Shown: positions 18,677 through 61,696 of the stretch, piece by piece
How positions within the stretch are numbered: the first letter of the stretch is position 1
Layout: the number at the start of each line of letters is the position of its first letter
NCBI GenBank assembly: GCA_951406725.2
Contig: OX597816.1
Coordinates: 176,886,001-176,950,000, forward strand
Source: Octopus vulgaris
Taxonomy: Eukaryota
DNA length: 64,000 bases
Direction of reading: 5' to 3'
Program-made: the position numbers and the translations under genes
The notes under the pieces: model-generated
The model's database searches: none
Told to the model about the DNA's origin: nothing
The model's input: the letters and a program-made list of their open reading frames with translations, nothing else

Positions 18677-20820
18677 TATCCACAAATATATTTTGTATGG
18701 TCCAATTGCAAGTTATCCACAGAGGAAACAATAATACTAGGAATGAAAGACCTTCTAGATATAGTTTGTTATTCCAACTTGCTCTTTTCTTGCCAGTTCA
18801 TGTAAAACACTCTGTCAAAACAGCCGTACACATTTATAACAGCCCTAAACTCAAACAATACTATTACTTCCAGTCAGTCTAAACCAGTGATTCTCAAGCT
18901 GAGAAATACCAGGCCTCTACAAAAAATATTAGTGAAATATTCGACAGTATCCCTTCTGTGAGTCCAAAACAATACATCGATAATTTAGTACCTTTCATGT
19001 AAACTACAGAAGGAATAAAACCAACTAATTCATTATTGCCTTGTTTCTAACTATCATTTTCAATATTTCCTCGGTGAAGTAAGTAGTAAGTAGTGAATAT
19101 ATCTTGTGTACCATTTTGAATTTCGTTCCTCCTGATGGTTCCAGAGAAGTCAAATCTATTGACTCTGTGAATAGTTAACTTTCCTAAACCTCTTGCACTT
19201 TAGTATGTGAATTACTTTATCAAGTTTTCTTTTTGTGATTTAGGTCTTTAACTAATTAATTAGGTGCATGTGTTGTTTTATCAAAAGTCATACTATATCT
19301 AAAAGTGCATCCAAACCTTGACATCATTCTCGTCTGTTTTCTTTCTCTTTATCAATAGCTATTGAATCTCTAATATTTCCAAGCCTTATATTCTATCTGT
19401 TGCTAATATTAACTGACAAAAGTCTGCTATTAATGGAAAAGGTTTGCTGCTGTTGATATTTTAAATCTAACATATCGTAATTATTAAAAGTAGAATGTGA
19501 AAGTTTTTTATTTCAAGGTGAAAAAGCTGCATTCCTCCCCTACAGTATAAAGAATTCCATCCCCTGCACATGCTAGTACTCAGTCTCCAGTGTTCACTCT
19601 TAGAAGCTCCATATTCTTAGTATTTTCTAAAATTTCCTGGCATTGAAAATGCACTTAAACTCTGAGATTTGTTGACATGATGCAAAGCTTAAATGCACCC
19701 ATAATAGTTGAAGAGTTGAAGTGGCTGTCTGCTATTAAATACTAGTAACCGAGACCATTTTAAAGAGAAATTCAATTTGCTGATTAACAACTTTCAGATT
19801 ATGACTATTGCCCTGTGTTTGTCCTCATCCTACAATAGGTTTTATTTTACAAATCTTCATTTCTCTTTCTCAAAACTATTTGTTGTAACTTTGATATTGC
19901 TTCTTCTGAAACTTGCCTTTTCCCTGAAATCCTGCCCCAATTGATACATTATGTCCTTAATTCTAAGAACCACTTCATTGTTAAATTTCATTACTCCATT
20001 GTATCCTGCAACACTGTAGCCATCCCCTTTCAAATTATCAATCTGGTATTTATTTTCTATCCATTCTGAACTGAAAGATGTCTCAGAATATGAAATCCCT
20101 CTTGTTCTCTCTATTTAGTAAAAAAGTAAAAGCTTGAAGATAAGAGAAAAAAAAAATGTTCTTTAAAAGTAAAGTTGAACTGTTATATGCAAAACCGAAG
20201 ATCATTAAGGAATTTCACTGATTGTTAGCTTGATCAAGCAAAGTGATTGGAAAAGACATTTCAGCTATGACCATTCCATCTTTTATTCAATTATTGTGTA
20301 TCTAGGACTTCATTAGCTAATGCACCAACCTTCTATATTTGAGTGAGGTTTATCTATTTCTAGCAAGTTAGTCAACTGTGTAGAGCCCCTTTATATTGTT
20401 GTAAAGCCAAATCAAAACTAACTCACATGGGGTTAAATTATCTTTTACAATCATTAGTGCTATATTTTTTTTCACAGACATAGGTTGGGTGGCTTTTTAC
20501 AACAGCATGTTTCCTTTTACTGTGACCTTCTGTTGTCTTAACTCTGAATACAAGAAACAAAATCTTTCCAGGCACATTTGCTGTAAGATTAAGAGGTGGA
20601 GCACTTAAAGCTTTAAAATATAACATTGTACAGATTTAATTTATGTAAGTGACACTAAAGTAGTCATCAGAATGAATAATCGCTAGAATTTCACTTTTCA
20701 CAATTATTAAAATTAAAAGAGCTGACTTCACTTTTATAATTAAAAGATCTATAAAACACTTGTTATTTGGAGACAATCTTGATTAATTATATATATATAT
20801 ATATCTTTTAATCATTTCAG

Positions 20821-21509
20821 TTGTTCTTGATCGAAAATATAACAAATGTTGTGATACAGGAAGTTTTGAGCTGGGTTACAAACAGAGTGTAATAAGTTGT
20901 CCTCTGTATCTTTGCTTAAACATGTCTATTGAAGGCCAAAGAATAAAGACCCCAACTTCAGTTGGGAAACAAATTTTGAGAAGTCCATCAGTAAGAAGTC
21001 CATCTGTAAGAAGTGCATTAGTAAGATGTTCATCCGTAAATAGCAAATTTAAAAAAGGAAATGAGTCGATGCCAAAAGATATGGATCGAATCTCAGGCTC
21101 ATTAAAATATAGAAAAAACACAAAAAGTGTCAATTCAAATTGCCAGTTTTTGAATGATATGAATGCTGTAATGAATATTAATAGAAGCAAAATATGTAAA
21201 CCCAAAGCTTGTTTTGGAAAATTTCGAACTATTAGACCAAAGGAAGAAAATGGAGATCAGTCACTACTTGTAAGTACGAGTTTTGGAGAGAGACAGTTTA
21301 GATCACGAAATAGTAAAAATATACTTCTTACTCAACGAAACAGAAGGAGTCCAGAAATCAAATCTTTTAAGCAACAGAATCATAAACTGTCTCTTACTGA
21401 ATGTAGGAGTTCCAAAGAAGCTTTCAAGGCTCATGTACGTAAAACTTTAGTTCCTAACATTGCTCACATAATATTTCCAATGATCTCTAGAATTTCTGCA
21501 TTGAAATAA
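20821..21509 (+). CDS. TTLL3: TTLL3/8-like probable terminal coding exon with basic, Ser/Arg-rich tail
   Basis: tttcag| acceptor, phase 1; VVLDRKYNKCCDTGSFELGYKQ matches the conserved VVxDR..CDTGxFELxYKQ block; in frame with ORF 20922-21509; AATAAA at about 21815 and 21968. Confidence 0.85.
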
Positions 21510-23149: not shown

Positions 23150-23490
23150 ACTTTTTCTTTTTACTTGCTTCAGTCATTTGACTGCGGCCGTGCTGGAGCA
23201 CTGCCTTTAGTCGAAGAAATCGACCCCAGGACTTATTCTTTGTAAGACTAGTACTTATTCCAACAGGCCTTTTTGCCAAACCGCTAAGTTATGGGGACAT
23301 AAACACACCAGCATCTATTGTCAAGTGATGTTGGAGTACAAACACAGACACACAAACATGTACACACACACACATATACGATGGGCTTCTTTCAGTTTCT
23401 GGTCAACCCGAGGCTATAGTAGAAGACACTTGCCCAAAGTATCACACAGTGGGACTGAACCCGGAACCATGTGGCTGGTAAGCAAGCTAC
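23150..23490 (-). mobile_element. SINE family A lacking its first ~24 nt (interrupted by a Tx1-like LINE)
   Basis: The SINE sequence begins on - at GTAGCTTGCTTACC, directly after the LINE 3' end. Confidence 0.85.
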
Positions 23491-25135
23491 TTTATTTCAT
23501 AAATATTTGCCATGAAGGCATTACAAAGCGGGGACAAACAAGAAGAGACAAACAAAAGCTATAGTGATTAAATATTTACAATTTAAAAATACAATAATTT
23601 AATGAAAATGTTTATAATTTTTGACTTAAGCATTGCTCATTACAAATGAAATTTGTAATGGCTTCTCTGAAGGATAGGCATCCGACCACCAGGGTAGACC
23701 CCTTGCTTTTTCTTTCCTGTTTTTGGCTTCCACTTAGCTGGTGCCAAACACTCCCAGCTTCCTCGCCACAGGCTTCCATCTTCGCATGAATCTGTCTCGT
23801 GACAGGTACCTTTTCTCCAGCCTGATCTTATTACTGAGGTGGTAACTAAAAAAGTTAACCAACCCCTGGCCGGATACAAAGGTACCCGACACTATGCCTC
23901 TCACACGCGTCTTCCATACTGTTTCTTTCAGTATGGCTACAACACAGAAAAAGCAAGCCTTCCTTTCCTTGTTAAGGGAAGGAGGCGGTACAATCTCGAT
24001 GATAGATTCAGCTGATAGCTGTACTCTTCCCATCGATGACAACAGTTGCTCTGCGAAAACTATCAGTCTCGTTAATTCTGGATACTCCACAAATGCATGC
24101 AAGACAGTTTCCCTGTACTGCCTGCACCTTGGACATGTCAGCAAGACGGCATGTCCATGCTTTGACAGTTTATCATGAACAGGTAACGCTACACTGCCAA
24201 GCCAGAGATTTCTGGTAATTGTCCAGATACCCTGGCCTGAAAGTTCTCCGGAACAGGTTGATTAACTGATTTTCATCGCAGCCCAGGGGCTCCCCAAGGC
24301 GTCTTCGGACTTAACCTCCACTAACCCACTATAGAAATCCACAGTGGAATCCCTATTGCCGGCATTGCCCACTCAAGAGAGTGGCTGAAGTGCCTGGTGG
24401 CACTCCAATTGCCAGTTCCCCAGCCTAGGTCTCTGCTTGATCCAATTACCAATGTCCGTTAAGGACGTTAATTGCGAAAGGTAGAACCGAGTGTGCGGTG
24501 ACTACACCTGCTCTCCATCCAGGTAAAGCCAGAGGCGCCTCAACCTTAACGTGAATTTTTGCATCCTCAGCCAAGGCATCCCTAACCTACCCTTTAGCGG
24601 TTTCTGGTATCAGACAGAGTGCTTCACGAGTGGCTTTCCTCCCTTCCACAAAAAGCAGAAAAGGATTCTCTCCAACTTGTTCAGCCACAAATCAGAGCAA
24701 GGTACCACGGTCAGACGGTAGGTGATAACCGATGCTATAAACGTCTGCACCACCTCTGCCTTTCCTAGCAAAGATAACGCCTGCCCAGACCAGGTCTGGG
24801 TTAGAGCAGTCACCTTGCTGGCCACCTCACTCCAATTTTGCTCTATCTGGAGGTCTGGCCCGAACCAGACTCCGAGCAGCTTAACAGGACCTTCCGTCCA
24901 ATGCCCCATGATGTTATTGGATAGCATCAGCTTGCCCCTCCAGGTACCGAGCTGCAAACCAATTGACTTGTCCTTGTTAACCTTTGCTCCTGCCACCGCC
25001 TCGTAACTTTTGATAGCCTTTTCCACCACTGGAAGCTTTATATACAAAAGTGGGGACAGGGGACACCCCTGACACACTGGGCGCTTGATCCTGAATGGCT
25101 TTGAAAGGAAACCATTCACTTTTATGACGGACTCG
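23491..25135 (-). mobile_element. Tx1/L1-clade LINE, 3' portion (inverted copy)
   Basis: Reverse complement of ~27270-29056 with an internal deletion spanning YADD; C-terminal CPRC...ETVLHAF zinc motif. Confidence 0.9.
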
Positions 25136-28100
25136 TACCAGGGATAAATATATCATGGACACATTAAAGAAACATCACACCATGGAGCTGTTGCAGCAGT
25201 CTGAAGGCACGGAAGAGAGATGTGCCTGGATACCAGAAAAACTGTATAATGAAATGAAGGGTAGGCATCCGAGAGCCATCACGAACATCCCGGACCTTCC
25301 ACGGTATTTGAAGGAGCAGGAGGAAAGGACTGCCTCACGTGTGGTGAGGTCAGCCCCAGCATCACCAATTAAAGAAAAGTCAAAGAGTAAGTAGAACCCT
25401 TGCTTTGCTTTTGTTTTAAATGACTGCACTTAACCTTGGGTGTTTGAATGTGCGTGGTCTGAGCTTGAAGTGGAAGCAAGCTTGTTTTCACGATATGCAT
25501 GTGATGGTTGCTACAGAGACCAAGCTGGACAGTCTACAAGCCCTCTCGCCCCTCCTGAATGACTATGAGGAAATCATGTCGCCTAGCTCGACTGGAGGGC
25601 TAGGGGGTGTAGTAGTACTGGTTCGAAAAGGCTTGGCTCTGCAGACAAATACAGTCTATGTAGACCCAGAAGGTGGGCTGGTTGTCCTTGATGTGACATA
25701 CAGCAGTAAGGCCTTCAGGTTGATCGGGATCTACGCACCTTGTGCTAGAGGATTTCAAACTGATTTTTATCGGCGCCTAGAGAACTTTCTCGGGACGTCA
25801 AAGACATTAGTGGTGTTAGGAGACTATAATGCTATTGTTGATGCATGCATCGATAGCGTTGGCTCGATCTATAGGAAAGTAAACTCACGTCTCATAAATC
25901 TGCTCAAGCGTTTTCAGCTGGCTGATCGTTACAGACTTGACCATCCGAACGTCCCAGAGTGGACCTGGATGAGTGGCGACGGAAGGTTCAAGTCCTATTT
26001 AGATAGGATAGTGATAAGAACTGGAGATAAGTCTAGTTTTAGCTGTCCACAGCATGTCCAAGTAGCTTTCACTGACCATAGAATGGTTAAGTGTTGACTG
26101 GACATAGATAGTACAGTTAAGAGAGGATCCGGCTACTGGAAGCTGAACAAGTCTATCTTGACTTGCGAGGCATACTGTAGCGGGATTGAGGAATTAGTAC
26201 AGAGGGCGTTAACCGGCACAGTGATTAATAACTGATGGTGGTTCGCCCTCAAGGGAGCCATTCGTTTTGAGTCTATTAGGTTTAGCTGTCAGCTAAGACT
26301 AGATAAGGCCAGAATAGAAGGGCAACTAGTTAAGGACGTAAAGGAGGTGTTGAGGTTGGGCTCTGCATCTCACATTTTGGCAGCGAGAACGGCCTTGGAC
26401 CATTACCTCAAAGACAAACATGAGGGGTGCAGAGTTCGGGCTAAAGTGTGTGCATTGGGCCGTGAGGGAATTAATGTTGCCGGATGGGACCGTACGGTAG
26501 AAACCCAACTTGGCAATGATGCCACAATTAGGTCTCTTGTGGATGACAATGGGTGTTCGGTCGATGGACGGGACGAGATATGTGAGGCGATTCACAAGCA
26601 CTTTGCCGAGTTGTTTGGGAGTGGCGGGACGCTGGATCATGGCGAGGCACTTAGGGACTTCCTGTCTGGCGGCCCGCATCTCTTGGCACAAGAGGCTGAG
26701 TGCTGTGAAGGGCCAATCACGGCCAAGGAGGTGATCTAGGTACTGGGCGAATGCCCCGGGGAGAAGTCACCGGGTCTCGATGGTCTACCCTATGAATTTT
26801 ATAAAAGTATGCCAGACTTGTTCGGGCACCTGCTGGCCAGAGTCTACACCAATTGGCAGCAGAATGGGAGAATTCCCAAGTCTGCGAGCTGGCGGGTGGT
26901 GACGTTGATCAGGAAGGACCCGAGCAAGGGGGACGAAATAAGGTACTTCAGGTCCATAACTCTGCCGAACACAGAGTTAAAGATTTTCGCCAAGGTGTTA
27001 GCGAAAAGGTTGGCGCGGGTCGTGGACAAACTTTTCGGAGAAGCGCAAATGTGCGCTATCCCGGGCAGGATGATCCACGACAATCTCCGCCTTATTCGCT
27101 ACTTCTTAGAGAGGGTGGGGAAGCTTTCTGGGGGGGGGGGGCACTGGTACATTTAGACCAGTCTAAGGCATTCGATAGGGTCAACCATTGGTACTTGGTA
27201 GCGGTCCTCGAGAAGGCTGGCTTGGGCCCGACTTTCCGCAGTTGGATTGCTGCGTTGTACAGCAACATCGAGTCCGTCGTAAAAGTGAATGGTTTCCTTT
27301 CAAAGCCATTCAGGATCGAGTGCTCAGTGTATCAGGGGTGTCCCCTGTCCCTGCTTTTGTATGTACTGGCTCTCGAGCCATTACTGCAGAAGTTGGAGAC
27401 ACTAGGGGGCGCACCGCATGATCTACGGTGTGGAAGAGGAGCTACAGTGTATGCAGATGACATCTCCATCATCATGGTGGATGAGGGCCAGCTTCCAGTG
27501 GTGGAAAAGGCTATCAAAAGCTACGAGGCAGTGGCAGGAGCAAAGGTTAACAAGGACAAGTCAATTGGTTTGCAGCTCGGCACCTGGAGGGGCAAGCTGA
27601 TGCTATCCAATAACATCATGGGGCATTGGACGGAAGGTCCTGTTAAGCTGCTCGGAGTCTGGTTCGGGCCAGACCTCCAGATAGAGCAAAATTGGAGTGA
27701 GGTGGCCAGCAAGGTGACTGCTCTAACCCAGACCTGGTCTGGGCAGGCGTTATCTTTGCTAGGAAAGGCAGAGGTGGTGCAGATGTTTATAGCATCGGTT
27801 ATCACCTACCGTCTGACCGTGGTACCTTGCTCTGATTTGTGGCTGAACAAGTTGGAGAGAATCCTTTTCCGCTTTTTGTGGAAGGGAGGAAAGCCACTCG
27901 TGAAGCACTCTGTCTGATACCAGAAACCGCTAAAGGGTAGGTTAGGGATGCCTTGGCTGAGGATGCAACAATTTGCGTTACGGTTGAGGTGCCTCTGGCT
28001 TTACCTGGATGGAGAGCAGGTGTGGTCACCGCACGCTCGGTTCTAACTTTCGCAATTAACGTCCTTAACGGACATTGGTAATTGGATCAAGCAGAGACCT

Positions 28101-29056
28101 AGTCTTGGGGACTGGCAATTGGAGTGCCACCAGGCACTTCAGCCACTCTCTTGAGTGGGCAATGCCGGCAATAGGGGTTCCACCGTGGATTTCTATAGTG
28201 GGTTAGTGGAGGTTAAGTCCGAAGACGCCTTGGGGTAGACCCTAGGCTGCGATGAAAATCAGTTAATCAACCTGTTCTGGAGAACTTTCAGGCCAGGGTA
28301 TCTGGACAATTACCAGAAATCCCTGGCTTGGCAGTGCTTCTTTGTGGTGTTACCTGTTCGTGATAAACTGTCAAGGCACGGAAGTGCCGTCTAGCCAACA
28401 TATCCGAGGTGCAGGCAGGACAAGGAAACCATCTAGCATGCATTTGCGGAATGTCCGGAATTAACGAGACTGATAGTTTTCGCAGAGCAACTGTTGTCAT
28501 CGATGGGAAGAGTACAGCTATCAGCTGAATCTATCATCGAGATTGTACTGCCTCCTTCCCTTAACAAGGAAAGGAAGGCTTGCTTTTTCTGTGTTGTAGC
28601 CATACTGAAAGAAACAGTATGGAAGACGCGTGTGAGAGGCATAGTGTCGGGTACCTTTGTATCCAGCCAGGGGTTGGTTAACTTTTTAGTTACCACCTCA
28701 GTAATAAGATCAGGCTGGAGAAAAGGTACCTGTCACGAGACAGATTCATGCGAAGATGGAAGCCTGTGGCGAGGAAGCTGGGAGTGTTTGGCACCAGGTA
28801 AGTGGAAGCCAAAAACAGGAAAGAAAAAGCAAGGGGTCTACCCTGGTGGTCGGATGCCTATCCTTCAGAGAAGCCATTACAAATTTCATTTGAAATGAGC
28901 AATGCTTAAGTCAAAAATTATAAACATTTTCATTAAATTATTGTATTTTTAAATTGTAAATATTTAATCGCTACAGCTAGTTCACCCTTTTATGTTTGTC
29001 TGTCCTTGTTCGTCCCCTCTTTGTAATGCCTTCATGGTAAATATTCATGAAATAAA
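25136..29056 (+). mobile_element. Tx1/L1-clade LINE, 5'-truncated and pseudogenised (end of ORF1, ORF2 APE-RT-CCHC)
   Basis: APE motifs LNVRGL, TETK, GIYAP, GDYN, LDR, TDH; GSGYWKLN linker; RT motifs KSPGLDGLPYEFY, LDQSKAFDRVNH, QGCPLS, YADD; several stops and frameshifts; 3' end ATGAAATAAA. Confidence 0.93.
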
Positions 29057-29396
29057 GTAGCTTGCTTACCAGCCACGTGGTTCCGGGTTCAGTCCCATTG
29101 TGTGGCACCTTTGGCATGTGTCTTCTACTATGGCCGACCAAAGCCTTGTGAGTGGATTTGGTAGACAGAAACTGAAAGAAGCCCATCGTATATATTAATA
29201 CATATGTGTGTCTGTGTTTGTCCCCCCAACATCGCTTGACAACCGATGCTGATGTTTTTACGTCCCTGTAACTTAGTGGTTCGGCAAAAGAGTCCTACAA
29301 AGCTTACAAAGAATAAGTCCTGGGGATGATTTCTTCAACTAAAGGCAGTGCTCCAGCATGGCCGCAGTCCAATGTCTGAAACAGGTAAGAGAGTAA
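29057..29396 (+). mobile_element. SINE family A lacking its first ~24 nt (interrupted by a Tx1-like LINE)
   Basis: Starts at GTAGCTTGCTTACC directly after the LINE 3' end. Confidence 0.85.
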
Positions 29397-29487
29397 CAGT
29401 TCAAAGCAGCTGATTCCTCTTCAGTAGTTAGAGGAGAGTTAGTTTTATATTGCACTTGAATAATCACCATAACGTGTTGTACATTTA

Positions 29488-29870
29488 GGAGCGCTCCGTC
29501 GGTTGCGACGACGAGGGTCCCAGCTGATCCGAATGAACGGAACAGCCTGCTCGTGGAATTAACGTGCAAGTGGCTGAGCACTCCACAGACACATGTACCC
29601 TTAACGTAGTTCTCGGGGATATTCAGCGTGACACAGAGAGTGACAAGGCCGGCCCCTTGAAATACAGGTACAACAGAAACAGGAAGTAAGAGTGAGAGAA
29701 AGTTGTGGTGAAAGAGTACAGCAGGGATCACCACCATCCCCTGCCGGAACCTCGTGACGCTTTAGGTGTTTTCGCTCAATAAACACTCACAATGCCCGGT
29801 CTGGGAATCGAAACCGTGATCCTACGACCGCGAGTCCGCTGCCCTAACCACTGGGCCATTGCGCCTCCAC
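29488..29870 (-). mobile_element. SINE family B
   Basis: Full, slightly more diverged copy. Confidence 0.9.
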
Positions 29871-30193
29871 GTAGTACATTTAATTGTCTAGTGACTGTGT
29901 TTTGGTACTATTAAGTCAATCAGTTATGTCTTCATTCCAAAATATCATGGGATAATGAAGATATTTGATGCATGTCACTAAAACTTGCGAGTGATAAGTA
30001 AGGGAAGAAAGTTGAACAGGGATTAGTAACTTAATTTTATAATGGCTCACTTTAGATGTTTTTCACATGAAAATAATCCCTCATATCATCTTGCTTTCAT
30101 TACTGGCAATGCTTAATTAAGTAGAAATGAAACAAATCATGACACAAAAAAGACTGTTTAAAAGCCATCAACTCACAATGATCCAGATATATA

Positions 30194-30733
30194 CTCTTTT
30201 ACTTGTTTCAGTCAATTGACTTTGGCCATGTTGGAGCGCTGCCTTAAAGAGTTTTAGTCAAAGAAATTGACCCCAGGACTTATTCTATTGGTCCCTTTTG
30301 CAAAACCACTAATTTATAGGGATGTAAACATACCAACATTGATTGTCAAGTAGTGGTATGGGGACAAACACAGACAGAAAACACACATAAATATATGGTG
30401 GCACGTAAAAAGCACCCACTACACTCACGGAGTGGTTGGCGTTAGGAAGGGCATCCAGCCGTAGAAACACTGCCAGATCTGACTGGGCCTGGTGAAGCCT
30501 TCCAGCTTCACAGACCCCAGTTGAACTGTCCAACCCATGCTAGCATGGAAAACGGACGCTAAATGATGATGATACGATGGGCTTCTTTCAGTTTCTGCCT
30601 ACCAAATCCACTCACAAGGCTTTGGTCGGCCTGAGGCTATAGTAGAGGACACTTGCCCAAGGTGTCACCCCAGTGGAACTGAATCTGGAATCATGTGGTT
30701 GGGATGCAAGCTACTTACCACACAGCCACACCT
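30194..30733 (-). mobile_element. SINE family A with a family C insertion in its central microsatellite
   Basis: SINE halves flank a ~30397-30572 family C fragment; a further old family A copy lies at ~31008-31368. Confidence 0.8.
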
Positions 30734-31689
30734 ATTAAATTTGAAGTTTTCAGAAAAGGTCTGAGGCCCACATAGAACATCTCAGTGATTCACTTGTGGG
30801 TCACAGCCCACTTGTTATATTCCCAGAGTAGGCAGTGACTATGAATAAATCATTAAGAGAAGCAAGGAAGTGGATCAGGGAGGTGCATTTCTTGTTGTTT
30901 ACTTCTATGTTGATAAGATGGGGATAGAAGAGATTTAGCAAGAAATGATCTGGTAATAAGGGTTGTCAAATAACTGCCAACTTAAATATTTCAGTTTTAG
31001 GAGGAGTTCATTTGACTGTGGCCATGCTGTGGCACTGCCTTTAAGAATCTTTTTTTAGTCCAATGAATTGACACCAGTGCTTATTTTTTCTTTTAAACCT
31101 GATAATTATTCTATCAGTTTCTGTTGCCGAACTGCTAAATTATATAAACACACTAATGCCGGTTGTCAAGTGGTGGTGGGGAGACAAACATAAACAGAAA
31201 GACACATATATCTGATAGCTTCTTTCAGTTTTTGTCTACCAAATCCACTCCCAAGGCTTTGGTCAGCCTAAAGCTATAGAAGAAATCACTTGTGCAAGGT
31301 GTCACACGGTGGAGCTGAACCTGGAACTATGTGGTTAGAAAGCAAAATTCTTACCACACAGCCACACCATGTATAAAATAAGATAAAAAGCAGAAAAGCA
31401 ACAATGGTCAAGAGACCATTGGCGTTGCAATGGAGCTGGCTTTATTAAATATGGTCTAGTTCTTGTTATTGCAAAATCTGCTCTGGCCAGGCAGATTGAA
31501 AGCATTCCAGCCATGACAATCCCATCTTTTCAAGAATAGTTTATCTCAGGCAACATTATCCAATATGTCCATCCTCTTTTTTTCTTTTTTTTAAGATATG
31601 AAGATGCGACTTAAGAGAGATTTGGCAACTATGTCCTATAGAAGGTTCTCTCGTATGGCTTGTATTCTAGCTGTTATTGGAGAAAGAAA

Positions 31690-32533
31690 AATATCAATAG
31701 TGTTATAAGAGGTGATTGATTATGGTCATCTCCAGAGTTTTATTCAAAGTGAACTAAACCTTTCATATCCTACCAAACAGACAACACCTTACGTGGGTGA
31801 AGACATTCTTTAGTCTGGGGTGCCGGTGTTTCTCCTTTCTGTACCCACTGTCTTCAGTGCTTGACATTTTTATAGAGAGCTCATTTTTCGTCACCAGTCA
31901 TATTCAGTTAAAAAAAGGTTCATTCATGAGATGTGACTGCAAAGAAGAGCACACATTCACTCTCTGCATGCGATTAGATTCAGAAAGTTTGTGAGGAACC
32001 CATTGACACAATTTGCTGATGTTTCTGATGGCACGCAGGTGTTGATGAATGGTTGAATGACCAAATCCAAGTTTCTCTGCTGGTTCCTCAACAGTTATGA
32101 TGGGATTTTGTTCCACCAGGGTTTGCAGGACGTCCTCGTTGAGCTCTTCAGATCTTCCAGAATGAGGCTCATCTTCTAGGCTGTAGTTTCTGGCTCGGAA
32201 TTTCTGGAAGCACCATTGACACTGGCTTATGCTTATTATCCGATCCCCATATACTGCATTAATGTTCCTCACACTTTCCGTAGCATTGTTGCCTTTATTG
32301 AACTAATAATGCAAAATGTGCCGAATATGCTCCTTTACCACTTCCATTATAGCTTTGAAAAAAATAACTGTTAAAATTGAACTACACTCTTCAAAACTTG
32401 CACTTAGAATAAGGACAAGGTAAAATTACTACCTACTTTTATAACAAATTGATGCAGGTAGTTTATCCTGTCCCCCTCTGACTTTTAGTTCATGCAATTG
32501 AAAACACCAACATTATTTATGGGATGACCCAAT
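31690..32533 (-). mobile_element. Mariner transposon remnant
   Basis: ...FQKFRARNYSLEDEPHSGR...WVPHKLSE (WVPHEL motif); TA-TTGGGTCATCCCATAAATAA terminal sequence. Confidence 0.88.
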
Positions 32534-32543
32534 ATATGTGTAT

Positions 32544-32634
<91 letters not shown>

Positions 32635-32929
32635 CACACACACCTTGTTCAGTGTGTCAACACAAATCCAATCTGTAGCTCAGGAATTTTAATTATTGCA
32701 ATTTTATGAAATTTACAAGTTACATATATTAAGTATAGTTATTACTGTATCTGTTGTAGAAGCAAGCAGAAAATTTACCAAAAGTACTTGAAAATAAAAG
32801 GTAGGAAGTAATCTTGTTAGTTTTTTTTATATGTATTAATGCTAATTAATATCCTAAACATTTAAAATGTTCTCACAACTTTCATTCAAACAAATAATAA
32901 TAATAATAATAATAATCATAATGATTTTT

Positions 32930-33292
32930 AACATAGGCACAACTCCAGAAATTTGGGAGAAGGGTTACAGTCAATTATATCAACCCCACTAATTGACTGA
33001 TACTTTAAGAACCTGATGAAAGATAAAGTTGACTTTATACGATTTGAACTCAGAAGGTAAGGAGTTAGAACACATTCTTTTTTACTCAAGGCACAAGACC
33101 CAAAATTTTTGGGGAGGGGGCCAGTCGATTAGATTGACCCCAGTACATAACTGGAACTTCATTTATCAGCCTCGAAAGGACGAAAGGTAGAGTCGACCTT
33201 GGCAGAATTTGAACTCAGAACGTAAAGACAGATGAAATTCTGTTAAGCATTTCACCTAGTGTGCTAATGTTTCTGCCAGCTCGCCGCCTTAG
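32930..33292 (-). mobile_element. Tandem copies of SINE family D (B-box GAGTTCAAATTC, core GTCGACT...CCTTTCATCCTTTCGGGGTCGATAAA...GTACCAG)
   Basis: Repeated at ~14500, 16915, 37570-38070, 38670-38820, 39480, 50210, 53790, 57990 and 63625-64000; (ATT)n tails. Confidence 0.75.
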
Positions 33293-33725
33293 CCACAACA
33301 CATATTGACACTTTAATGTTTCTACCAGTATTAATAACTGTTTCTTTCATAGGCCACAGATTTAGAGTAAAAAGAGAGTTAGTTAATTAAATTTTCCCCA
33401 GTATTTTAGGCGTTTTCCTGACCAGCTAATGGTTCTAATTTAGGTAGGGGTTCAGAAATTCATAGGGGTGGGGTTAGTTGATTAAATCAAGCCCAGTACT
33501 TGAGAGATATCTTATATCTTTTACTTGTTTCAGTCATTAGACTGTGACCATGCTGGAGCACTGCCTTGAATAATTTTTAGTCAAATGAATTGACCCCAGT
33601 ACTTATCTTATGTTAAGCCTGTACTTATTCTATTGGTCCTTTTTACTGAACTGCTAAGTGATGGGGATGTAAACACATTAATACTGGTTGTCAAGTGGTA
33701 CTGGGGGACAGACACACAAACACAA

Positions 33726-33763
<38 letters not shown>

Positions 33764-34349
33764 AAAAAAAAGTCAAGATAGAAAATGCTAAAATAATTTT
33801 AGAAAAAACATTTCAGTACCGGTTTCAGTCATTGAGACTTTTTCAAGTGTAACAATTAAATAACTAAATTTAGAAAAATTAAAAGAAAAGTTTTTTTAAA
33901 AGAATATTTGTATAGTGTTCAAATACAAGGGGTATTTTCCTTGTTTCTGCCTGTCTCTGTCTCTCTTGTAATATATATATATATAGTAATAAAAATAATA
34001 ATAATCTTTGGATGGAACTTATAAATATTTTAATGCATTGCTATGTGTTTTCATGCATCACATATACCTTAAGATCAAAGTCCATATTCCTGAGATAATT
34101 ACTGAGATAATTCCTGAGATAATTACTGTACAGTCCACAGTATCCATGAACATTGGGGAGATCATGTCCATGCATTCATTTCTTCTTATTATTACTATAT
34201 TTCTCCTACGTTGTATCGACACAGCTCAATGCGACCCCAAAAAATTGGTATCGCCAGTTGCCATCATTGAGCTGTAACCAGCATCATAAAATAGAAGCTT
34301 TTATATACATATTCAAAACGTTTCCCATATACAAACTTAAAGGATGTAT

Positions 34350-34783
34350 ATGAAATCAAAATCAAATTCGATGACTGGCATCTGTGCCAGTGGAGCGCTA
34401 AGAGCACCATCTGAGCATGATTGTTGCCAGAGTAGCAAACTGGCTTCCGTGCCGGTGGTGCGTAAAAAGCACCATTTGAGTGTGATCGTTACCAGCGTTA
34501 CTGGCACGTGAAAAAACATTCGAGGGAGGTCGTTGCCAGTGTGACTGGACTGGCTCCTGTGCAGGTGGCATGTAAAAACACCATTTGAGTGTGACTGTTG
34601 CCAGTACTGCCTGACTGGCCCTTGTGCCGGTGGCACGTAAAAGTGCCCAATACACTCTCAGAGTGGTTGGCATTAGGAAGGGCATCCAGCTGTAGAAACA
34701 CTGCCAGATCAAGATTGGAGCCTGGTGCAGCCAAATCGTCCAACCCATGCTACCATGGAAAGCGGACGTTAAACGATGATGAT
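34350..34783 (+). mobile_element. Family C (RTE 3' UTR) copy with tandem internal units
   Basis: GGCACGTAAAA units, GGAAGGGCATCCAGC, (GAT)n tail. Confidence 0.75.
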
Positions 34784-35039
34784 TTATATATATATATATA
34801 TATATATAATGTTATAATTTAGGACAAACAGTAAAAGGTTATCGTTATTGTGCTTGGAGTTTCAAATGTCGGAGAGAAGAGCTACGATACATTCCCATCA
34901 GCTATTAATAGCAACAGATTCTATGAAAATCTATTAAATAAAAGGGATGTGACTCTAAAAGATAGAAAAAGAAGATAAAAAATACACGCAACCATATTTT
35001 CACAATACATAGACATAAACCTCCTGCATTCACGTCTAC

Positions 35040-35310
35040 ATACACACTCACACAAACATGTATACGTACATGTACACACATACAAACATATATATACTCA
35101 TACATACACACATATCCACACGTATATATATGTATATATGTATGTATATATATATGTATATATATATATATATGTATGTATGTATATATGTATGTATATA
35201 TATATATGTATATATATATGTGTATATACATATATATGTATATATATGTATATGTATATACATATATAGGTATATATATGTATATACATATATATGTATA
35301 TATATGTATA

Positions 35311-35342
<32 letters not shown>

Positions 35343-35343
35343 C

Positions 35344-35394
<51 letters not shown>

Positions 35395-35401
35395 TATATA
35401 C

Positions 35402-35454
<53 letters not shown>

Positions 35455-35460
35455 TATGTA
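35040..35460. repeat. Compound (TA)n/(TATG)n/(CATA)n microsatellite
   Basis: Seen directly; produces the spurious YIYI ORFs. Confidence 0.98.
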
Positions 35461-36097
35461 TCATCATTATCATCGTTTAACGTCCGTTTTCCATGCTGAC
35501 AAGGGTTGGATGGTTCGATCGGGGTCTGGGAAGCCAGGAGGCTGCACCAGGCTCCAGTCTGATCTGGCAGTGTTTCTACAGCTGGATGCCCTTCCTAGCG
35601 CCAACCACTCTGTGAGTGTAGTGGGTGCTTTTTACGTGCCGCCGGCACAGAAGCCAGTCAATGCGGCGCTGGCATCAGCCATGTTCGGATGGTGCTTTTT
35701 ACGTGCCGCCGGCACAGGTATCACAACTACTATTTCCATTGATATTTATTTCGATGTTTATGTACTTGACTCAATAGGTCTCCTCAAGCACAACAGGTCA
35801 TGTGCCACTGGCACAGAAGCCAGTCGAGGCAGCGCAGGCATCGGCCACGTTCGGATGGTGCTTTTTACGTGCCGCCGGCACAGGTGTCGTAACTACAATT
35901 TCTATTTGATATTTATTTCGATGTTCATGTACTTGACTCAATAGGTCTCCTCAAGCACAGCAGGTCGTTCTGCAATCCAAGGTACTTTGAATGGGCTGGG
36001 GCTATGCGAAACTGGTGCAGGAAGCAGCCCGGGTCTTTGCAGTCACAGCATATCTCCTGAGATCTCGGTTCTTCGTCATTGCCTCTGTGAGGCTCAA
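35461..36097 (-). mobile_element. RTE LINE 3' end (last ORF codons plus tandem-repeat 3' UTR)
   Basis: On -: LTEAMTKNRDLRRYAV, like the ORF end at ~50920-50970, followed by family C sequence. Confidence 0.8.
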
Positions 36098-36153
36098 AAA
36101 CGCCATGCTGTGGGACTGAATCCAGAAGTATATGGTTGGGAAGCAAGCTTCTT

Positions 36154-37534
36154 TACTTCAATATTTTGCCATAAAAGCATAACATAGAGAGGAGACTACA
36201 AAACATGTGGGGACATATAACAATTAAAAATATGTAAACATAAAATACGATTCTATGAGTGACGTGAAAATGAACATGAGAAAATAAATTAAAGTTATGA
36301 TAACATGTATGATATCTGAAAATGAAAACATGAAGAGTGTGTTACTCACCCCACACTGAGTAACACCACTTGCTGCCTCTGAGTCCTACTTCCTCTTTAG
36401 TCTCTGGTCTAGTCCTATTTCTGCTCTCGCTATCGCTCAATGACAACACTCTTTCGTAACCTTTTTCACCGGGGGAGGGGGTCTTCTAAATTCTGTGATG
36501 TCTGCTCTTTTTCTTTTTTCCTGTCGGGAAAGTGGTGAATGGGTCTGAGTGGTCTTGAATTGGACTCAGTGTTTTTTCTTTTCTTCCCTCTACTCTCTGT
36601 TACTATCCATTCTCCCTCCTTTCCTCTGTCTTTCTTTTTTTCCTCTCTTTTCTCCTCTGTCTCCACAACTAGTTCGTCTGTTGTTTCATCTATTATTTTC
36701 TTCTGTAGAAGGAAGTGTGCTCTAATGTGGCCCTTTTGGCCACATTTAAAACAACATGGGACTCTGCCCTCCACCCACACTCTTAACACAATTTCTACCA
36801 ATGCCACCATCTCTGCCAGACCCTCTAGCTGCTTCTCCTCTACCTGCAGGATGATATCCAGTGATTTCGCTCTCAATCCTCCTCCTTCCGTTTCCGTGGC
36901 TTGGAGGACAGCCACCTTTTCCTCACTTCCAACGAGGACAGCTGCCATGACCCAAGCCACTTCTATATCAGGTGGGATTGCTTCCACCCTTACCTTGGAA
37001 GTCTTTCTTCCAAGATATGTGGGCAGAAGCACCACCTCTTCTGTCCTCATCGCCACACTCGCCTCCTTCACTGTCCTAAACTGGATGATCACTGTCCTGC
37101 ATTTACATCCTTTGGTTCAACTGTTTCTTTAGCGCTTTTTCTATTATTTCCGCTTCCATCTGTTCAGCCTTTTTGTTCTTCAGGGAGTGCACCCTACAGG
37201 TGATAGTTTTCCTCTCCATTTGCTCCATGATTCTTTTAGGTGGCAACAACTTCACATTGCCACCCACCTTCTGCGTCATTCTTCTATATTCCTTTAGTCC
37301 AGCCAGGTCTACATCTTTTCTTTTTATCTCCGCCACCTCAGAAAGACTTCTTGTTCTCTCCAATATTCTGTCCAGTCTTCTCACCGCCTTCACCAGCTCC
37401 TCCTCCGTTGAAGACAATTCAGACCCGCTAAAGTCTGAATACATTTTCTCTAAACTGCTGCCAAACAGCACAAAAGTCTTGTCTGACTCTCAAAAAAACA
37501 AACCAGCAACTTAATCAACACATGCGCAGTAACC
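36154..37534 (-). mobile_element. ORF1-only non-autonomous Tx1-like retroelement with a 15-bp TSD
   Basis: TSD GGAAGCAAGCTTCTT at 36139-36153 and 37535-37549; frameshifted gag-like ORF1 (37471-36466) with zinc knuckle CFKCGQKGHIRAHF (last Cys lost); no APE or RT; 3' tail similar to the LINE at ~29015-29056. Confidence 0.85.
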
Positions 37535-38117
37535 GGAAGCAAGCTTCTTACCACACAGCCACACCTCAGTACTGAAAAGATGAAAAGCAAAGTTGACTTT
37601 GATAAAATTTGAACTTGAGCTGGAAGATATACTGCAAGGCATTTTTCCTACATCTGTCCATAATAATTGATGCAAGGCCAGCGATTATTGAGGTAGCGGA
37701 GGGGGCAAGAATTAGTTGATTACATTAACTCCAGTACTTGACTGGTACCTTTATCATTTTATCAAACCAAATGGACGAAATTTGAGCTGGAGGTAAAGAA
37801 CTGGAAGAAATACCACAAGGCATTTTCCTGATGCTCTAACAATTCTGCCAATAATAATGATAATAGTTCTTTTCTAATTTTCCCACAAAGCCAACAATTT
37901 TGAGGGGAGGAGAAAATTGATTACATTCATCCCAGTACTTGACTGGTACTTTATTTTATCAATCCTGAAAAGATGTAAAGCAAATTTGACCAAGGTGGGT
38001 TTTGAACCCAATGCCAAGGGCTGAAGATACATAATTCATGGTATTTTTTTAATACTCTAACAATTCTGCCAATCTATAACCCTTAATTCTTTCTGATTTA
38101 GGCATAAGCAGGTAATA

Positions 38118-45660: not shown

Positions 45661-46470
45661 TTAAAATGCAAAATTTGGTAAGCTCTTATCACGGGTAACT
45701 TCACCACCACAACTATCAACAGATGTCTGAAATCCATTTATTAGCAATTGTGAAGCAGATTTGCCAACAGCAGGGATTAACGCTTGTCCATTTTGGGTGC
45801 TAGATTTATTAGGGAGTGGATTTTCTATTTGTCTCTCAGAGACAGGCATAGAGTAGTGGTCTGGTTTAGGAACCTTGCTGTGAGAATACATTACCTTTGG
45901 GCTGATTTTACCAGAAGAAGAAGGCTTTTGCTCAGCAGGATCTTTTACAATCAAATCTTCTTCACTTATGTGGAGCTTAATATTATAGCTATCCTCACTG
46001 TCACTGGAAGAATGGTTGGAACTTGAGAGCATTGAAGTTAAAGAATGCTCATCATTATTAAAAGTGTCAGTTTCAAGAAGCCCATCACATTTCAAATGAC
46101 TATCACAAGGCAAATTCTTATTCAAATTATGGTTACATCCTTCAACAGGAGGATTTGGTTGACTGTGGTTTGGTTCAGCATATATCACTTGAGTTTCAGG
46201 TAAAGCAATATCTAGACCATTGGAAAGAGTTTCTTTATCTGTAAGCTGAGTAGCAGAAGACACAGCAGATAAACGGTGCCGTTTAGGAAGCTTTAATACA
46301 CCATTCTGGGTGTCATTTACTCTTTCTTTTGGCAACTTGTTAGATGAGAAGCTCTGCATAAGTTTGGTATTCCCATTTGGAATGCATCTTTCATTGTAGC
46401 TCACTGACGGTACCTCACTGAATGTACTCTCTTGGATATTATTCGTATAACATTCATCAGTTGTTTTCGT
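45661..46470 (-). CDS. Terminal coding exon of the same gene (Ser/Asn/Pro-rich, probably disordered cytoplasmic tail)
   Basis: 810-nt open frame in otherwise stop-rich AT DNA, preceded by a strong polypyrimidine gcag| acceptor; phase 0 matches the upstream exon; ends ...KSLPNFAF*. Confidence 0.75.
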   Translation of the reverse strand, partial: TKTTDECYTNNIQESTFSEVPSVSYNERCIPNGNTKLMQSFSSNKLPKERVNDTQNGVLKLPKRHRLSAVSSATQLTDKETLSNGLDIALPETQVIYAEPNHSQPNPPVEGCNHNLNKNLPCDSHLKCDGLLETDTFNNDEHSLTSMLSSSNHSSSDSEDSYNIKLHISEEDLIVKDPAEQKPSSSGKISPKVMYSHSKVPKPDHYSMPVSERQIENPLPNKSSTQNGQALIPAVGKSASQLLINGFQTSVDSCGGEVTRDKSLPNFAF

Positions 46471-47466
46471 CTGCAAAAAGGGAAAAAAAAACCATTATTA
46501 GACCAAATTTAACAAAATCTTTATATCATGATTAATTTTATGATTACATTTAACAAATATATATATTAAGATAAATATTAATGATTACTTTTTAACTGAC
46601 TCCTTTATATAAGTGAGGTAGAAATATTATTATTTAATTGCTGAGATATTACAAGTTTCTTATTACCGTCTTAAAAAATTAGAGCCACAAAATGAAAATT
46701 CAACCACTTTGAGTTTCTTTATATTGTGTAATACTAAGACCTTCCCCGCTTCTTTTTTAAACATTTGATCCAATTTTTTCCTCTCTTTTAACATCTAAAA
46801 CTAGAGTATTTTTGAAAAAAGTTGCCTGGCAATCTACGATGAGCTAATAAAGGTATTGCTTATCTCTTGCTTGTGTACCATTTAGCAGATGATAGAAAAA
46901 TGTCACTCTGGTTAGGAAGCAGGTCTACAGCAAAAATTTCTGGTACCTATACCTAGTAGCATAAACTAAAGCAAGGTATGAACACACAATTCTTGAAGGT
47001 ATGAACACACAATGAACACGCAAGGTATGAACACACAATTCTTGAACTGATCTTCCAAGTAACATTTTGTCTTAAACCAATATACCAGATGTGATGAAGA
47101 AAATAAATTAAAGGCTTAGTGTCACAATGCACATAAAAAAGGACATTTATACAGTCTAAGTAAGTGACTCTCTTCTTAAAACTGAGTAATTAGAATAAGA
47201 ATATCCTAACTGCTATAAATGTTCATTTCTTTTGACTCTGTTCAAAGCCTTATCTGTTTTATAGCACTGTAAACAGAATCTTATGACACACATAAATTAA
47301 GTGAAATAGCATCAACCAAATATTAAAATCACATCATGGTTTCAGCTTGTCATACGACCTGTGAGAATATTATTTAGATTAGACACTAATGCGCAATTTA
47401 ATTTAGCTTTCTTTTACTCCTTTCAATCCAGGTTTAGAGGATATAATAAATGGTAAGATTCTTGAA

Positions 47467-58211: not shown

Positions 58212-59765
58212 TTATTATAATAATAATAATAATAATAATGAAATTATTGTATCCAGTGCTCAGGTGCACCACAACTTATCAGAAAGTGCGTATAAAGCAT
58301 ATGCAGTAATGTAGAAATGTCTGGAAAGCGAACAATGTATGAGTCAGATACATGCTTGTGTGTGTATGGAGGGGAGAAAATCAAGTGTAGTGTTGGCGAA
58401 TCTCAGGAAGCATGGAAGTTTTGAAGGATGCAGTGCTCCGACAACTAACAACTGATGCTGGCAGTTTGTTCCATGCTTCAGCAACTCTCAGCGTGAAAAA
58501 ATGTTTCCTGAAGTCATGGGAGCTGTGCTGTTTTCTGACTTTGTAAATATGTCCATGGGTGTTAGATGGGTGGAGTTTGAAAAGGTGCTCAGAGTTATTG
58601 TTTGTACGATGGTTAATAATTTTATGGGTGTCTGCCAAGTCAGCTGCCAGACGTCGGAGTTTCAATGTGTCCATGCCCAGGGAAGTAAGGCGTTCAGGAT
58701 ATGGCAAATGCCTGATGGAGAGTATTCTTTTGGTTGCACGTCGCTGAACAGCTTCCAGACGATTGATATCCTGGGCAAGATAAGGGTTCCAGACCGGTGA
58801 TGCAAATTCCAGGTGAGGTCTTACCATAGCTATATAAAGCCGCAGATAGATAGCCGGAGAGCGGCTCACAAAGGATTTGGTGAGTGATGCCAAGACACCC
58901 TCAGCCTTCTTGACAATTTTAGCGATGTGTTTTGTCCAACGCAAATCACTGTCGACAATAACACCCAGGTCACGTTCACATGAAGACTTTTTGAGACTAG
59001 TGTTGTGGAGGGAATAGGTGGACGCTGGGTTTCTCCTCCCAAAATGCATGGTGGTACATTTGTTCACAGCCAGCTTGAGTTGCCAGTCCATGATCCACTG
59101 CTGCATTGTGTCCAGGTCTGCTTGCAATAGAGATCCATAGTGTACAGGATTTGACCTCTTTATTTCGAGGTACAGCTTGATGTTATCTGCATATTTCAGC
59201 ACTGTGGCATACTTTAAGTTGGCATCTATGTCATTAACATATGCAACAAATAAAAGGGGGCCAAGAACAGATCCCTGTGGTACACCAGATGTCATCTCAT
59301 AGGGCGAAGAGTGCTGTCCTAGAACTGTGACAACCTCTTTTCGGCTGAAAATAAAGGACTTCAACCAGTTATAGAGTCCGTCTATTACACCCAATGCAGA
59401 AAGCCTCACCATAAATCTTTTGTGTGGCACAGAGTTAAAAGCCTTAGCAAAGTCCAGGTAAACAACATCCACCCAGGATCCGCGATCAGTGATTTGGGTA
59501 ACGTCCTCAAGAAACTCGATGAGTTGATTACAGCAGCTGGAGTTAGGAATAAATCCGAATTGTGACGGCTGGATGAGGCTGTGAGACTTCCAGAAGGTTT
59601 TTCTGACACAGGATTCCATCAGTTTGGCGATGCAGCTAGTAAGACTGACGGGGCGATAGTTGACAGGCGATGTGCGGTCGCCTTTTTTGAACAGAGGGAT
59701 GACACTGGCAGTTTTCCACTGTTCTGGAGTAACACCATTGTCAAGACAGAATTGGAAGAATAGAG
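58212..59765 (-). mobile_element. CR1-clade LINE, 5'-truncated, RT frame still open
   Basis: YRPVSLTS, DVVYLDFAKAFNSVPH, SGVPQGSVLGPLLF, YADN (catalytic D to N), ERDLGV, RPHLEFASPVWNP, FFTLRVAEAWNKLP; (TTA)n 3' tail at ~58212-58240. Confidence 0.92.
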
Positions 59766-61696
59766 AAAGTTGGCTTAGAAGAAAGTACCCACCGCGTTTG
59801 AGAAGTTCTATGATGGGGTTCTTACAATGGATTTCAGTGCACTGTGCCTCCTGCACACCCACTCATCCCTTTTCATATTATTTTGCGTCTTTGTCCTTTC
59901 TACACTACAATAAAACGGTAGATACTTTCATCAGTAAGAACAATGGTTAGATTTCGTTGTCCTTAATCCCAAGTCAAAAGGCTGAATACTGCTATTATAT
60001 ATTAGCCCGACTTTTGAGAAATATCAGTCAAGAGGTATTTTAATTAGTGTTGTTAATATTTTCTTCTGTTTTCATGGCTTTACTTGTATCGATATGTAAC
60101 ATGATTCTATACACTGACAATTGAATCCATAATATAACAGAATGAAGGGTCATATAAAAGACCAAAAAAAGATTAAAGGATAATTAATGAAATTGCTTAA
60201 ACAACACTGAACTCCTGTGTTACGATAATTCTCTCCAGGAGCTGAAAAGCTGAAATGTGATTGCACCCCATCTTACCATTCTAATTTGATTCTCTTGTAA
60301 GTTACAAGAAAATACTTTGAACAGAAAAATAGTAGTATAAATATTATTTCCCTGGGTGGTAAATTGTTAGAGAAATCAACTGATAAATCTAATAAGAAGA
60401 AATTAGATGTGTCTCAACTGTGTTTGGTAGCAGTCTAGCTCTATCCAAGATGTATAGATTTAGAAATATAGGTCAAGCTATCAAATGACATAGCAAAAGT
60501 TTTACACCAATTTCAAAGTCTTAAAATTGTTTTATAGTTTTGATTATGTTATGTCAAAGGACTGATTATTTCTGTAAAATGAATTAATGTGACTGTAAAT
60601 AAATACACTGAAATGAGATACTTTGAGGCATGCTGTTTTCCCATTGAATTTTAATGTTACTCTAATATGTGTTTATAAAAACGAATATGAAACATTTCAA
60701 AAACTTCATTTATTTAATAATTTCATTTTGATGAAATGTGATCTGTGAGAAGAAGGTGCTATTACCCTTTGTGAATGCCAGACCAAAGTAAGAAATTTTT
60801 CACAGCTTTTATTGCAATTTTAGTGTTGTTGATACTAATAGTTAGAATTTGAAATTTAATTCATTGTTGAATTCAGATTCCCTTAGTTTAAAATAATTTT
60901 CAGATATAGAAAAATATACATATATTAAAATTCATATTAGTTTATAATAGATTTATACTCAAATATTAATTAAACAAAAAACTTTATGATGAGTAAGCAT
61001 ATATATATAGTTACTTGTTCCCATTGCTTTATGCACCCAACCATATAATCTAAATCCATTTTCATCATTCTAAGATTTCTAAAGTGGATGAGTTCTTACA
61101 AAATCTTACAATTAAGCTGAATGTATGAACTTGCACCTCATGTACACACACTAATTGGATTATCTCTTCTTAATTTATTACATGCTTTTAATTAACAAAT
61201 TGCCAGTCTCCTCTTTTGATCCTTCTTTTCTAATCCTCATTTATTATTATTTTCAATTGAAAAATGTTTGAAAAAAGTTACCCTAAAATGATTACAGAAA
61301 TTGATATATAATCATGGAAAAAGTTAAAAATTTTTTTACAAAATATTAAAAATGTTGTGTACCATGGAGATATTAAACAGGAATTGAGATAAAAAGTAAA
61401 ATGGTACAAAAGATAATGAGAAAAGAAAGTCATAGAAATGATTATTAAGATACATGAGTAGACTTAAATACTATATTACGATTACCTAAAAATGGTATGT
61501 ATATACCTTAAAAGCTCTATAGCATAAATTCTAAGGTGTTATCTAAAACATTTATGATCGAAACCATAGAAATTGGAGGAAAAAATATTTAACAAGATGT
61601 GTTACACAAAACTATGAAAATTTTTTCATTATTTTGATATTCAAAATAATTATACAACAAATGTAAAATAAGAAAATTGGTTTATTAAATACTTAC

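Follow-up and report, generated by a model that had tools for sequence, protein, structure and literature searches.

Site-specific insertion of LINEs into the tRNA-like head of a SINE in Octopus vulgaris

We analysed a 64,000-nt stretch of the Octopus vulgaris genome (GCA_951406725.2, contig OX597816.1, positions 176,886,001 to 176,950,000; hereafter the window), in which three long interspersed nuclear elements (LINEs) adjoin short interspersed nuclear elements (SINEs), and followed these elements through the 2.8-Gb genome. They were found to insert site-specifically into the SINE head. As the original prediction had it, all three LINE ends in the window lie at one SINE position, GTGTGGT^AAGWAGCTTGCT, agreeing within a 2-nt ambiguity (a shared AA); all three copies are co-oriented with the SINE, and the cut falls directly past an A-box-like motif (TGGCTGTGTGG), with a B-box-like motif (GTTCAGTCC) further on.

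Elements in the window

Copy 1 (23493..25135, minus strand) is the 3' part of an autonomous LINE, comprising the end of open reading frame (ORF) 2 and the 3' untranslated region (UTR); it is 5'-truncated and has an internal deletion, and its antisense tail motif (described below) is partly deleted. Its host SINE body (23150..23492, minus strand) begins at the target AAGTAGCTTGCTTAC and lacks the 5' stub. Copy 2 (25136..29054, plus strand) is a 5'-truncated autonomous LINE with the end of ORF1, a whole but broken ORF2 and the 3' UTR. This ORF2 (25420..28798, plus strand) encodes an apurinic/apyrimidinic-type (APE) endonuclease and a reverse transcriptase (RT), is interrupted by stops and frameshifts, and shows 84% identity to the ORF2 of a young family (copy L428), which is intact and 1,133 aa long. 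The motif AGCTAGTT (28975..28982, plus strand), which differs from the family motif AGCTACTT by one mismatch, lies 80 nt before the 3' end, and the second host SINE body (29055..29396, plus strand) again begins at the target. Both copies end in ...TGAAATA followed by AAGTAGCTTGCTTAC and the SINE body, the target starting at 23492 (minus strand) and 29055 (plus strand), respectively.

A head-to-head fusion at 25135/25136 joins copies 1 and 2, neither of which has a stub or a target site duplication (TSD). They are 96.3% identical to each other, compared with ~92% to 11 other copies, and have 24 private variants in common, whereas the next pair shares 8. Because they are fused and share these variants, they count as a single piece of evidence, although the original prediction took their host SINEs for different copies. 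Divergence between the two copies is patchy (82–100% identity per 100 columns), a pattern consistent either with a shared donor or with gene conversion across the inverted arms. The interval 23493-29054 is a spacerless inverted LINE pair that links two SINEs of opposite orientation, both of which have lost their stubs; it may have arisen by two insertions and a later loss of the intervening DNA. A CCAGCC variant considered as private to the two window SINEs was rejected as such, since it is also present in L407, L427, L451 and L470.

Copy 3 (36154..37534, minus strand) is a full-length 1,381-bp ORF1-only element (half-LINE) without ORF2. Its frameshifted ORF1 (36466..37444, minus strand) has a CCHC knuckle with a Pfam score below the cut-off and shares 30–40% identity with the ORF1 found in the young autonomous family, and the end of its tail resembles the autonomous tail. 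The downstream copy of a 15-bp duplication, AAGAAGCTTGCTTCC (36139..36153, minus strand, read from 36153), belongs to an older SINE type and is followed by a short SINE remnant. The same 15-mer occurs again upstream at 37549-37535, preceded by the SINE 5' stub GGTGTGGCTGTGTGGT with the A-box-like motif (37550-37566, minus strand). Copy 3 showed no BLASTN similarity to copies 1 and 2, so that the three ends do not represent one type of element as had been assumed. In contigs from other public runs, the 3' junction of copy 3 is bridged (X1, X9) and the 25135/25136 fusion is spanned with ~30 letters on the short side (X1, X2), which speaks against an assembly artefact.

Insertion at one SINE position throughout the genome

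Four junction samples, which overlap in part, were examined. The tail search suggested in the original prediction gave 40 scored matches to the copy 2 tail, 30 of which were fetched; 29 of the 30 continue into the site with no more than one mismatch, 26 of them into a SINE body and three into another element, and the remaining one lies in non-SINE sequence. With the copy 3 tail the site came next in 29/30 cases (up to three mismatches), the exception being a SINE with a deletion, and with an ORF2 protein query all 30 element ends were at the site. An exact tail pattern had 59 matches; of the first 30, taken in genome order, 29 were at the site. Positions with up to three mismatches to the 13-nt target numbered 56 among 127,974 in the window and 61 among 183,598 in 30 tRNA-gene loci, i.e. 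a chance expectation of 3–4e-4 per position, so that use of the site is far beyond chance. Genome-wide, exact matches came to 1,395 for the junction GAAATA|AAGWAGCTTGCT and to 72,753 for the empty site (occupancy ~2% among exact matches), and reversed-pattern controls gave no matches.

On the 5' side, 30 window-family copies were preceded by a SINE stub in 22 cases, by another element's tail in five and by other sequence in three; among 51 copies of the young family, 45 had a stub and six another element's tail. Elements stacked head to tail at the site, with no SINE body, were also found. Stubs were present upstream of the truncated copies L006, L016, L028 and L030 and even of inserts cut down to 27 and 45 nt (L490 and L509); stubs retained in this way by truncated copies show that the SINE serves as target and is not cargo. 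The opposite case, anticipated by the original prediction, is that the SINE remnant belongs to the element or was co-duplicated with it and that no targeting is involved. The non-independent, stubless copies 1 and 2 of the window would suit it, but it can be set aside with near certainty in view of these stubs, of the downstream SINE bodies, which vary from copy to copy and by subfamily, and of young elements that are ~98.6% alike (mean identity to L428) yet lie inside SINEs of different types. A 3' junction fixed at one point of a single repeat, truncation at the 5' end and target duplication, the features by which sequence-specific non-LTR elements (LTR, long terminal repeat) are recognised, were all found. 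The element's APE endonuclease, whose specificity is predicted, likely reads a core site of ~15 bp.

In the host SINE, the A-box-like motif starts 44 nt ahead of the B-box-like one; both were found with relaxed motifs, strict patterns being unmatched. Comparison of the SINE head with genomic tRNAs, in which few isotypes were sampled, gave best scores of 50–53 against shuffle maxima of 41–48. An Rfam scan of the head returned no tRNA call, and no source tRNA was identified among the genomic tRNAs compared. A real tRNA gene as the target was considered and rejected: the site combined with a canonical B box had five matches in the genome, none of which (0/5) was called as tRNA. Among 27 distinct tRNA gene sequences none contained the target site, and in no sample did a tail run into a tRNA gene. 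Self-homing of the SINE was likewise rejected, as a target-like word followed 1 of 121 SINE tails and preceded none of 97 heads. A second target-like word (AAGTAC..GGCTTAC) occurs in the 3' half of the SINE, e.g. at L051:3045.

Autonomous families, ORF1-only elements and sister targets

Where a single family had been predicted, the lineage in the genome comprises three or more autonomous subfamilies together with non-autonomous riders. The young family (~5.44 kb) has an intact ORF1 of 466–467 aa (CCHC) and an intact ORF2 of 1,133 aa. In L428, ORF2 matched Exo_endo_phos (the APE domain), RVT_1 and zf-RVT, all above cut-off, and ORF1 matched zf-CCHC (E 4e-5, above cut-off). The best PDB match of the intact ORF2 was human L1 ORF2 (E 1.3e-66), and R2 followed at 1.7e-19. 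We sampled 60 of the 150 places listed for the ORF2 protein query, chosen among the 79–82% rows; the site was found at the end of 59, and the remaining one is broken within its 3' UTR.

Two sister families have other targets. One was followed by (ATT)n next to its 3' end in 30/30 copies, and the other by (ATCT)n in 20/30 under a strict test; eight others open with an ATCT run that is short or decayed, and two had no tail match. ORF2 of the SINE-, ATT- and ATCT-targeting families is 59–73% identical. In a 44-row tree built on the region that contains the RT, which leaves the root order among target groups open, all four SINE-targeting rows group in a single clade (100/100) whose stem measures 0.28, and the stems of the two sisters measure 0.13 and 0.14. 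A switch from microsatellites to the SINE target is likely. The hairpin loop of the endonuclease reads TWMSGDGRFKS in the SINE-targeting lineage versus TW(T/S)NRIGSSRS in the sisters; this loop has been linked to target choice by Repanas et al. (PMC1950540). The nearest named ORF2 relative comes from Argonauta hians and falls inside the same 100/100 clade, closer relatives occur in other animals (P0001, P0002; 64–65%), and a homologue search with long proteins gave no match. Domain order, affinity to the L1 group and insertion behaviour suggest that the lineage is likely an L1-group LINE of the Tx1 clade. For the L068 flank with ~330 bp of the element's 5' end, a query that holds no ORF2, no match was listed in RNA data.

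Several related LINEs were noted in passing. The (ATT)n-targeting sister forms tandem arrays with a period of ~5.87 kb, many units of which have an open 1,145-aa ORF2 (L352-L381); in assembly G000 such arrays lie on C50 (at least 10 units) and C47, at C4:93.80-93.83 Mb and at C1:202.33-202.35 Mb. Loci L322-L351 and L413-L419 hold a LINE family with long open ORF2 frames and 3' ends entering (ATCT)n microsatellites. In CAXXMW01, labelled as an Arenicella metagenome-assembled genome (L211-L241), contigs of 13–32 kb consist of head-to-tail intact two-ORF LINEs, whose ORF2 (1,155 aa) is ~40% identical to the SINE-targeting lineage and whose 5' UTR and ORF1 are variable; no Rfam or tRNA matches were found between the units. 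These arrays are likely animal DNA in a bacterial bin and resemble telomeric or self-targeting arrays. A LINE ORF2 fragment deposited as a Herbaspirillum protein (P0089/P0124), 74% identical to P0002, is likely host contamination.

The family of copy 3 consists of ORF1-only elements. No ORF2 match was detected in any of its 30 loci, and 15 of the 30 could be measured from duplication to duplication (1,310–1,484 bp); it is thus a multi-copy family with ORF1 only and with full-length, duplication-flanked members, as in half-LINEs of the HAL1 type. Its ORF1 scored 162 bits against ORF1 of the SINE-targeting lineage and 136 against that of the ATT sister. From the shared tail and site, we infer that these elements are mobilised in trans by a partner ORF2. 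Several ORF1-only subfamilies begin with GCGCATGCG or TGCGCATG (window 37517-37534, minus strand; L039, L045, L048), starts which we take to resemble an NRF1 site, and subfamilies with similar bodies differ in their 5' UTRs.

Different subfamilies were associated with different SINE types. Sites with A(+4)/C(+14) accounted for 17/29 in the family of copy 3 and T/A sites for 25/29 in the autonomous family of the window, while the young family used TAAC-type sites in 42/56 cases and A(+4)-type sites in 0/56 (four of the 60 rows were dropped: two from another subfamily, one tandem and one broken). The baseline, counted by eye in the first 100 listed empty sites, was 28 TAAC and 22 A(+4). Preference for the youngest SINE type, like the position of the cut between the A-box-like and B-box-like motifs, might be expected if the elements were tethered to the RNA polymerase III (Pol III) machinery on the SINE promoter and the nuclease cut at a fixed distance from it, as Ty3 and TRE elements rely on Pol III tethering. 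We regard this as improbable: the A(+4) sites are avoided, in stacks the A or the B box is kilobases off (the six tail-preceded copies among 51; L450 and L468, which are followed by an element), the sister lineages use promoterless microsatellites, and the tRNA genes noted above neither contain the site nor receive sampled tails.

Junctions, tail motif and relation to known systems

The predicted clean 15-bp TSD was borne out by the two 15-mers flanking copy 3, but in full-length copies the upstream one proved to be only partly a copy of the target. Two truncated copies, L463 and L051, have private variants common to both flanks, from which it follows that the duplications of truncated copies are true DNA duplications. 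We examined 50 full-length young flank pairs (L477, a tandem, was dropped). In 11 of these copies the downstream site does not read ...TAAC; the upstream copy nevertheless ends in ...TAAC in 10 of the 11, and one has no duplication. An upstream duplication that carries the element's own version is likely RNA-templated. L150, which lies at a non-SINE site, has a DNA duplication and then seven extra target-like bases. An extra T at the 5' join was present at 8/11 mismatched versus 8/38 matched sites (Fisher p 0.003). Inheritance of this T was rejected, as it is scattered on the tree, with at least four and three changes forced by starred branches, and it is likely made anew at each insertion. 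One earlier-type ORF1-only subfamily, with the 5' end GCGCATGCG, mostly matches its target on both sides, so that the upstream overwrite is not universal. A symmetric 13-bp cut, considered because of a pseudo-palindrome in the site, was dropped since truncated copies duplicate up to 15–16 bp, and a crude scan of four 5' UTRs found no conserved candidate for a hepatitis delta virus-like ribozyme at the 5' end.

The 3' UTR contains, 80 nt before the 3' end, the motif (A)AGCTACTT, the reverse complement of positions +1 to +9 in the target (+1 to +8 for the core AGCTACTT). It was present in 22/22 young tails, in 22/36 window-family tails (up to one mismatch) and in 4/4 tails of the third subfamily; shuffling produced a 9-nt complement 3 times in 5,000. 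Fourteen non-autonomous tails with a CCAGCC box have the motif at about -45. In the 12 of these tails that were scored (two were not), motif and site covaried in every case, nine having GCTAC with T(+4) and three GCTTC with A(+4). In the predicted fold of the tail and flank, the motif pairs with the read-through site with a probability near 1.

Our preferred explanation, which we consider probable, is that a LINE lineage and its ORF1-only riders insert at one base of this highly abundant SINE by an APE nick and target-primed reverse transcription. The endonuclease would nick the ~15-bp core site on the bottom strand at 5'-GCTWCTT^ACCAC (with the 2-nt ambiguity), where reverse transcription would be primed, and the top strand would be cut ~15 nt further on. 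Full-length RNA would start ~5–7 nt inside the donor's upstream duplication; the end of the complementary DNA (cDNA), sometimes with an untemplated base, could then pair with the nicked top strand and join, so that the site would be written in the version proper to the family and may serve again as a target. Transcripts would read through into the downstream site, with which the antisense 3' UTR motif AAGCTACTT may pair, helping to fix the start of reverse transcription, and the ORF1-only elements would borrow ORF2 by means of their matching tail.

A role for the RNA in the choice of site was also considered, in which the antisense motif would pair with the displaced top DNA strand so that nuclease and RNA share specificity. 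The complementarity to +1 to +9, the retention of the motif in non-autonomous tails that lost the adjacent 35 nt, the GCTAC/GCTTC switch with site type in all scored tails, and the avoidance by the young family of the A(+4) site, which its motif would mismatch, are all consistent with this. An RNA–RNA stem in the read-through transcript fits the same data, however, and we hold RNA-assisted choice to be rather unlikely. Insertion by nick and target-primed reverse transcription, as set out above, is itself weakened by several points, the first two of which also speak against RNA-assisted choice. The motif was found in 0/28 tails of copy 3's own family, yet insertion there is equally precise, and the ATCT family carries a similar word, AAGCTCT, at a similar place without a complementary target. 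The word in the ATCT family could mean that some of the motif is older than the SINE target, the covariation in the 12 tails may go back to very few independent changes, and SINE age or chromatin may account for some of the subfamily preference. In addition, the tree rows are unnamed or mollusc only, with no named Tx1 reference. A broader picture, of a partly RNA-guided APE LINE that combines motif–target pairing, RNA 5' rewriting and tracking of SINE subfamilies after a microsatellite switch, is offered with considerable doubt.

Comparisons with known systems refer to parts of the cited papers. Targets on record for the Tx1 clade are DNA transposons, LTR elements, small nuclear RNA genes and microsatellites (PMC4494074, PMC4640811); Tx1L of Xenopus targets Tx1D, and the crocodilian Tx1-Mar, Tx1-8_Crp, Tx1-4_AMi and Tx1-9_AMi target transposons (PMC4494074, PMC1950540). 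Like these, the octopus lineage is an APE-type LINE that prefers another transposon, and as in the crocodilian clade microsatellite-targeting groups stand beside transposon-targeting ones. Unlike them, its target is a tRNA-like SINE head rather than a DNA transposon or LTR element. Single-base precision was seen in ~97% of sampled ends, and the ORF1-only riders and site stacks have no counterpart in the Tx1 descriptions compared (PMC4494074, PMC1950540). The (ATT)n and (ATCT)n sisters are microsatellite-specific like the Tx1 families Kibi and Koshi (PMC4494074), though the repeats differ. HAL1 (half-L1) elements are non-autonomous ORF1-only derivatives that spread as families (PMC5753468); the octopus riders share this organisation but, unlike the mammalian L1-derived HAL1, are site-specific and of Tx1-like origin.

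For the 5' junction, the closest parallels are R1 and R2, elements of other clades that target the 28S rRNA gene. Drosophila R1 shares the APE, a 14-bp duplication, tandem arrays on that duplication and untemplated 5'-junction bases, and Stage and Eickbush proposed R1 transcripts with flanking target at either end and related joining steps (PMC2718515). For R2, Eickbush et al. proposed that upstream target RNA anneals, giving uniform 5' junctions (PMC3774820), and R1Bm was reported to require downstream target sequence (PMC7265360). RNA-templated 5' joining has been proposed in both systems; in melanogaster-type R1, annealing leads to a deletion, whereas in the octopus element it would rewrite only the distal part of the duplication. 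The 3' UTR motif antisense to the target is a feature of the octopus element that is absent from the R1 and R2 descriptions compared.

No LINE targeting a SINE was found in the full-text literature searched; Repbase, Dfam, subscription journals and supplements lie beyond it, and a prior note is possible. Additional Tx1 targets may be given in the supplements of PMC4494074. The same literature gave no target description for octopus L1-Tx1 elements; a repeat annotation of the octopus from 2026 reports 13 recently active L1-Tx1 families, and the word 'target' is absent from its main text (PMC13282606, seen in part). As far as this literature shows, SINEs are thereby added to the targets of sequence-specific LINEs. 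One genome with intact, recently active sister families on three targets makes the gain and switching of specificity testable, and the junctions offer a clear natural case, in elements other than those of rDNA, of what appears to be RNA-templated 5' joining. A tail motif that does help to select the site would be useful for programmable insertion tools, and, should the RNA-guided picture be true, changing a few RNA bases would help to redirect insertion.

Elsewhere in the window, two open frames of 240 aa (20787-21509, plus strand) and 277 aa (45661-46494, minus strand) had no Pfam match and are possibly host exons. A Mos1-type mariner helix-turn-helix fragment lies at 31904-32302 (minus strand), and an unrelated RT fragment (RVT_1, E 2e-32) at 58381-59862 (minus strand).

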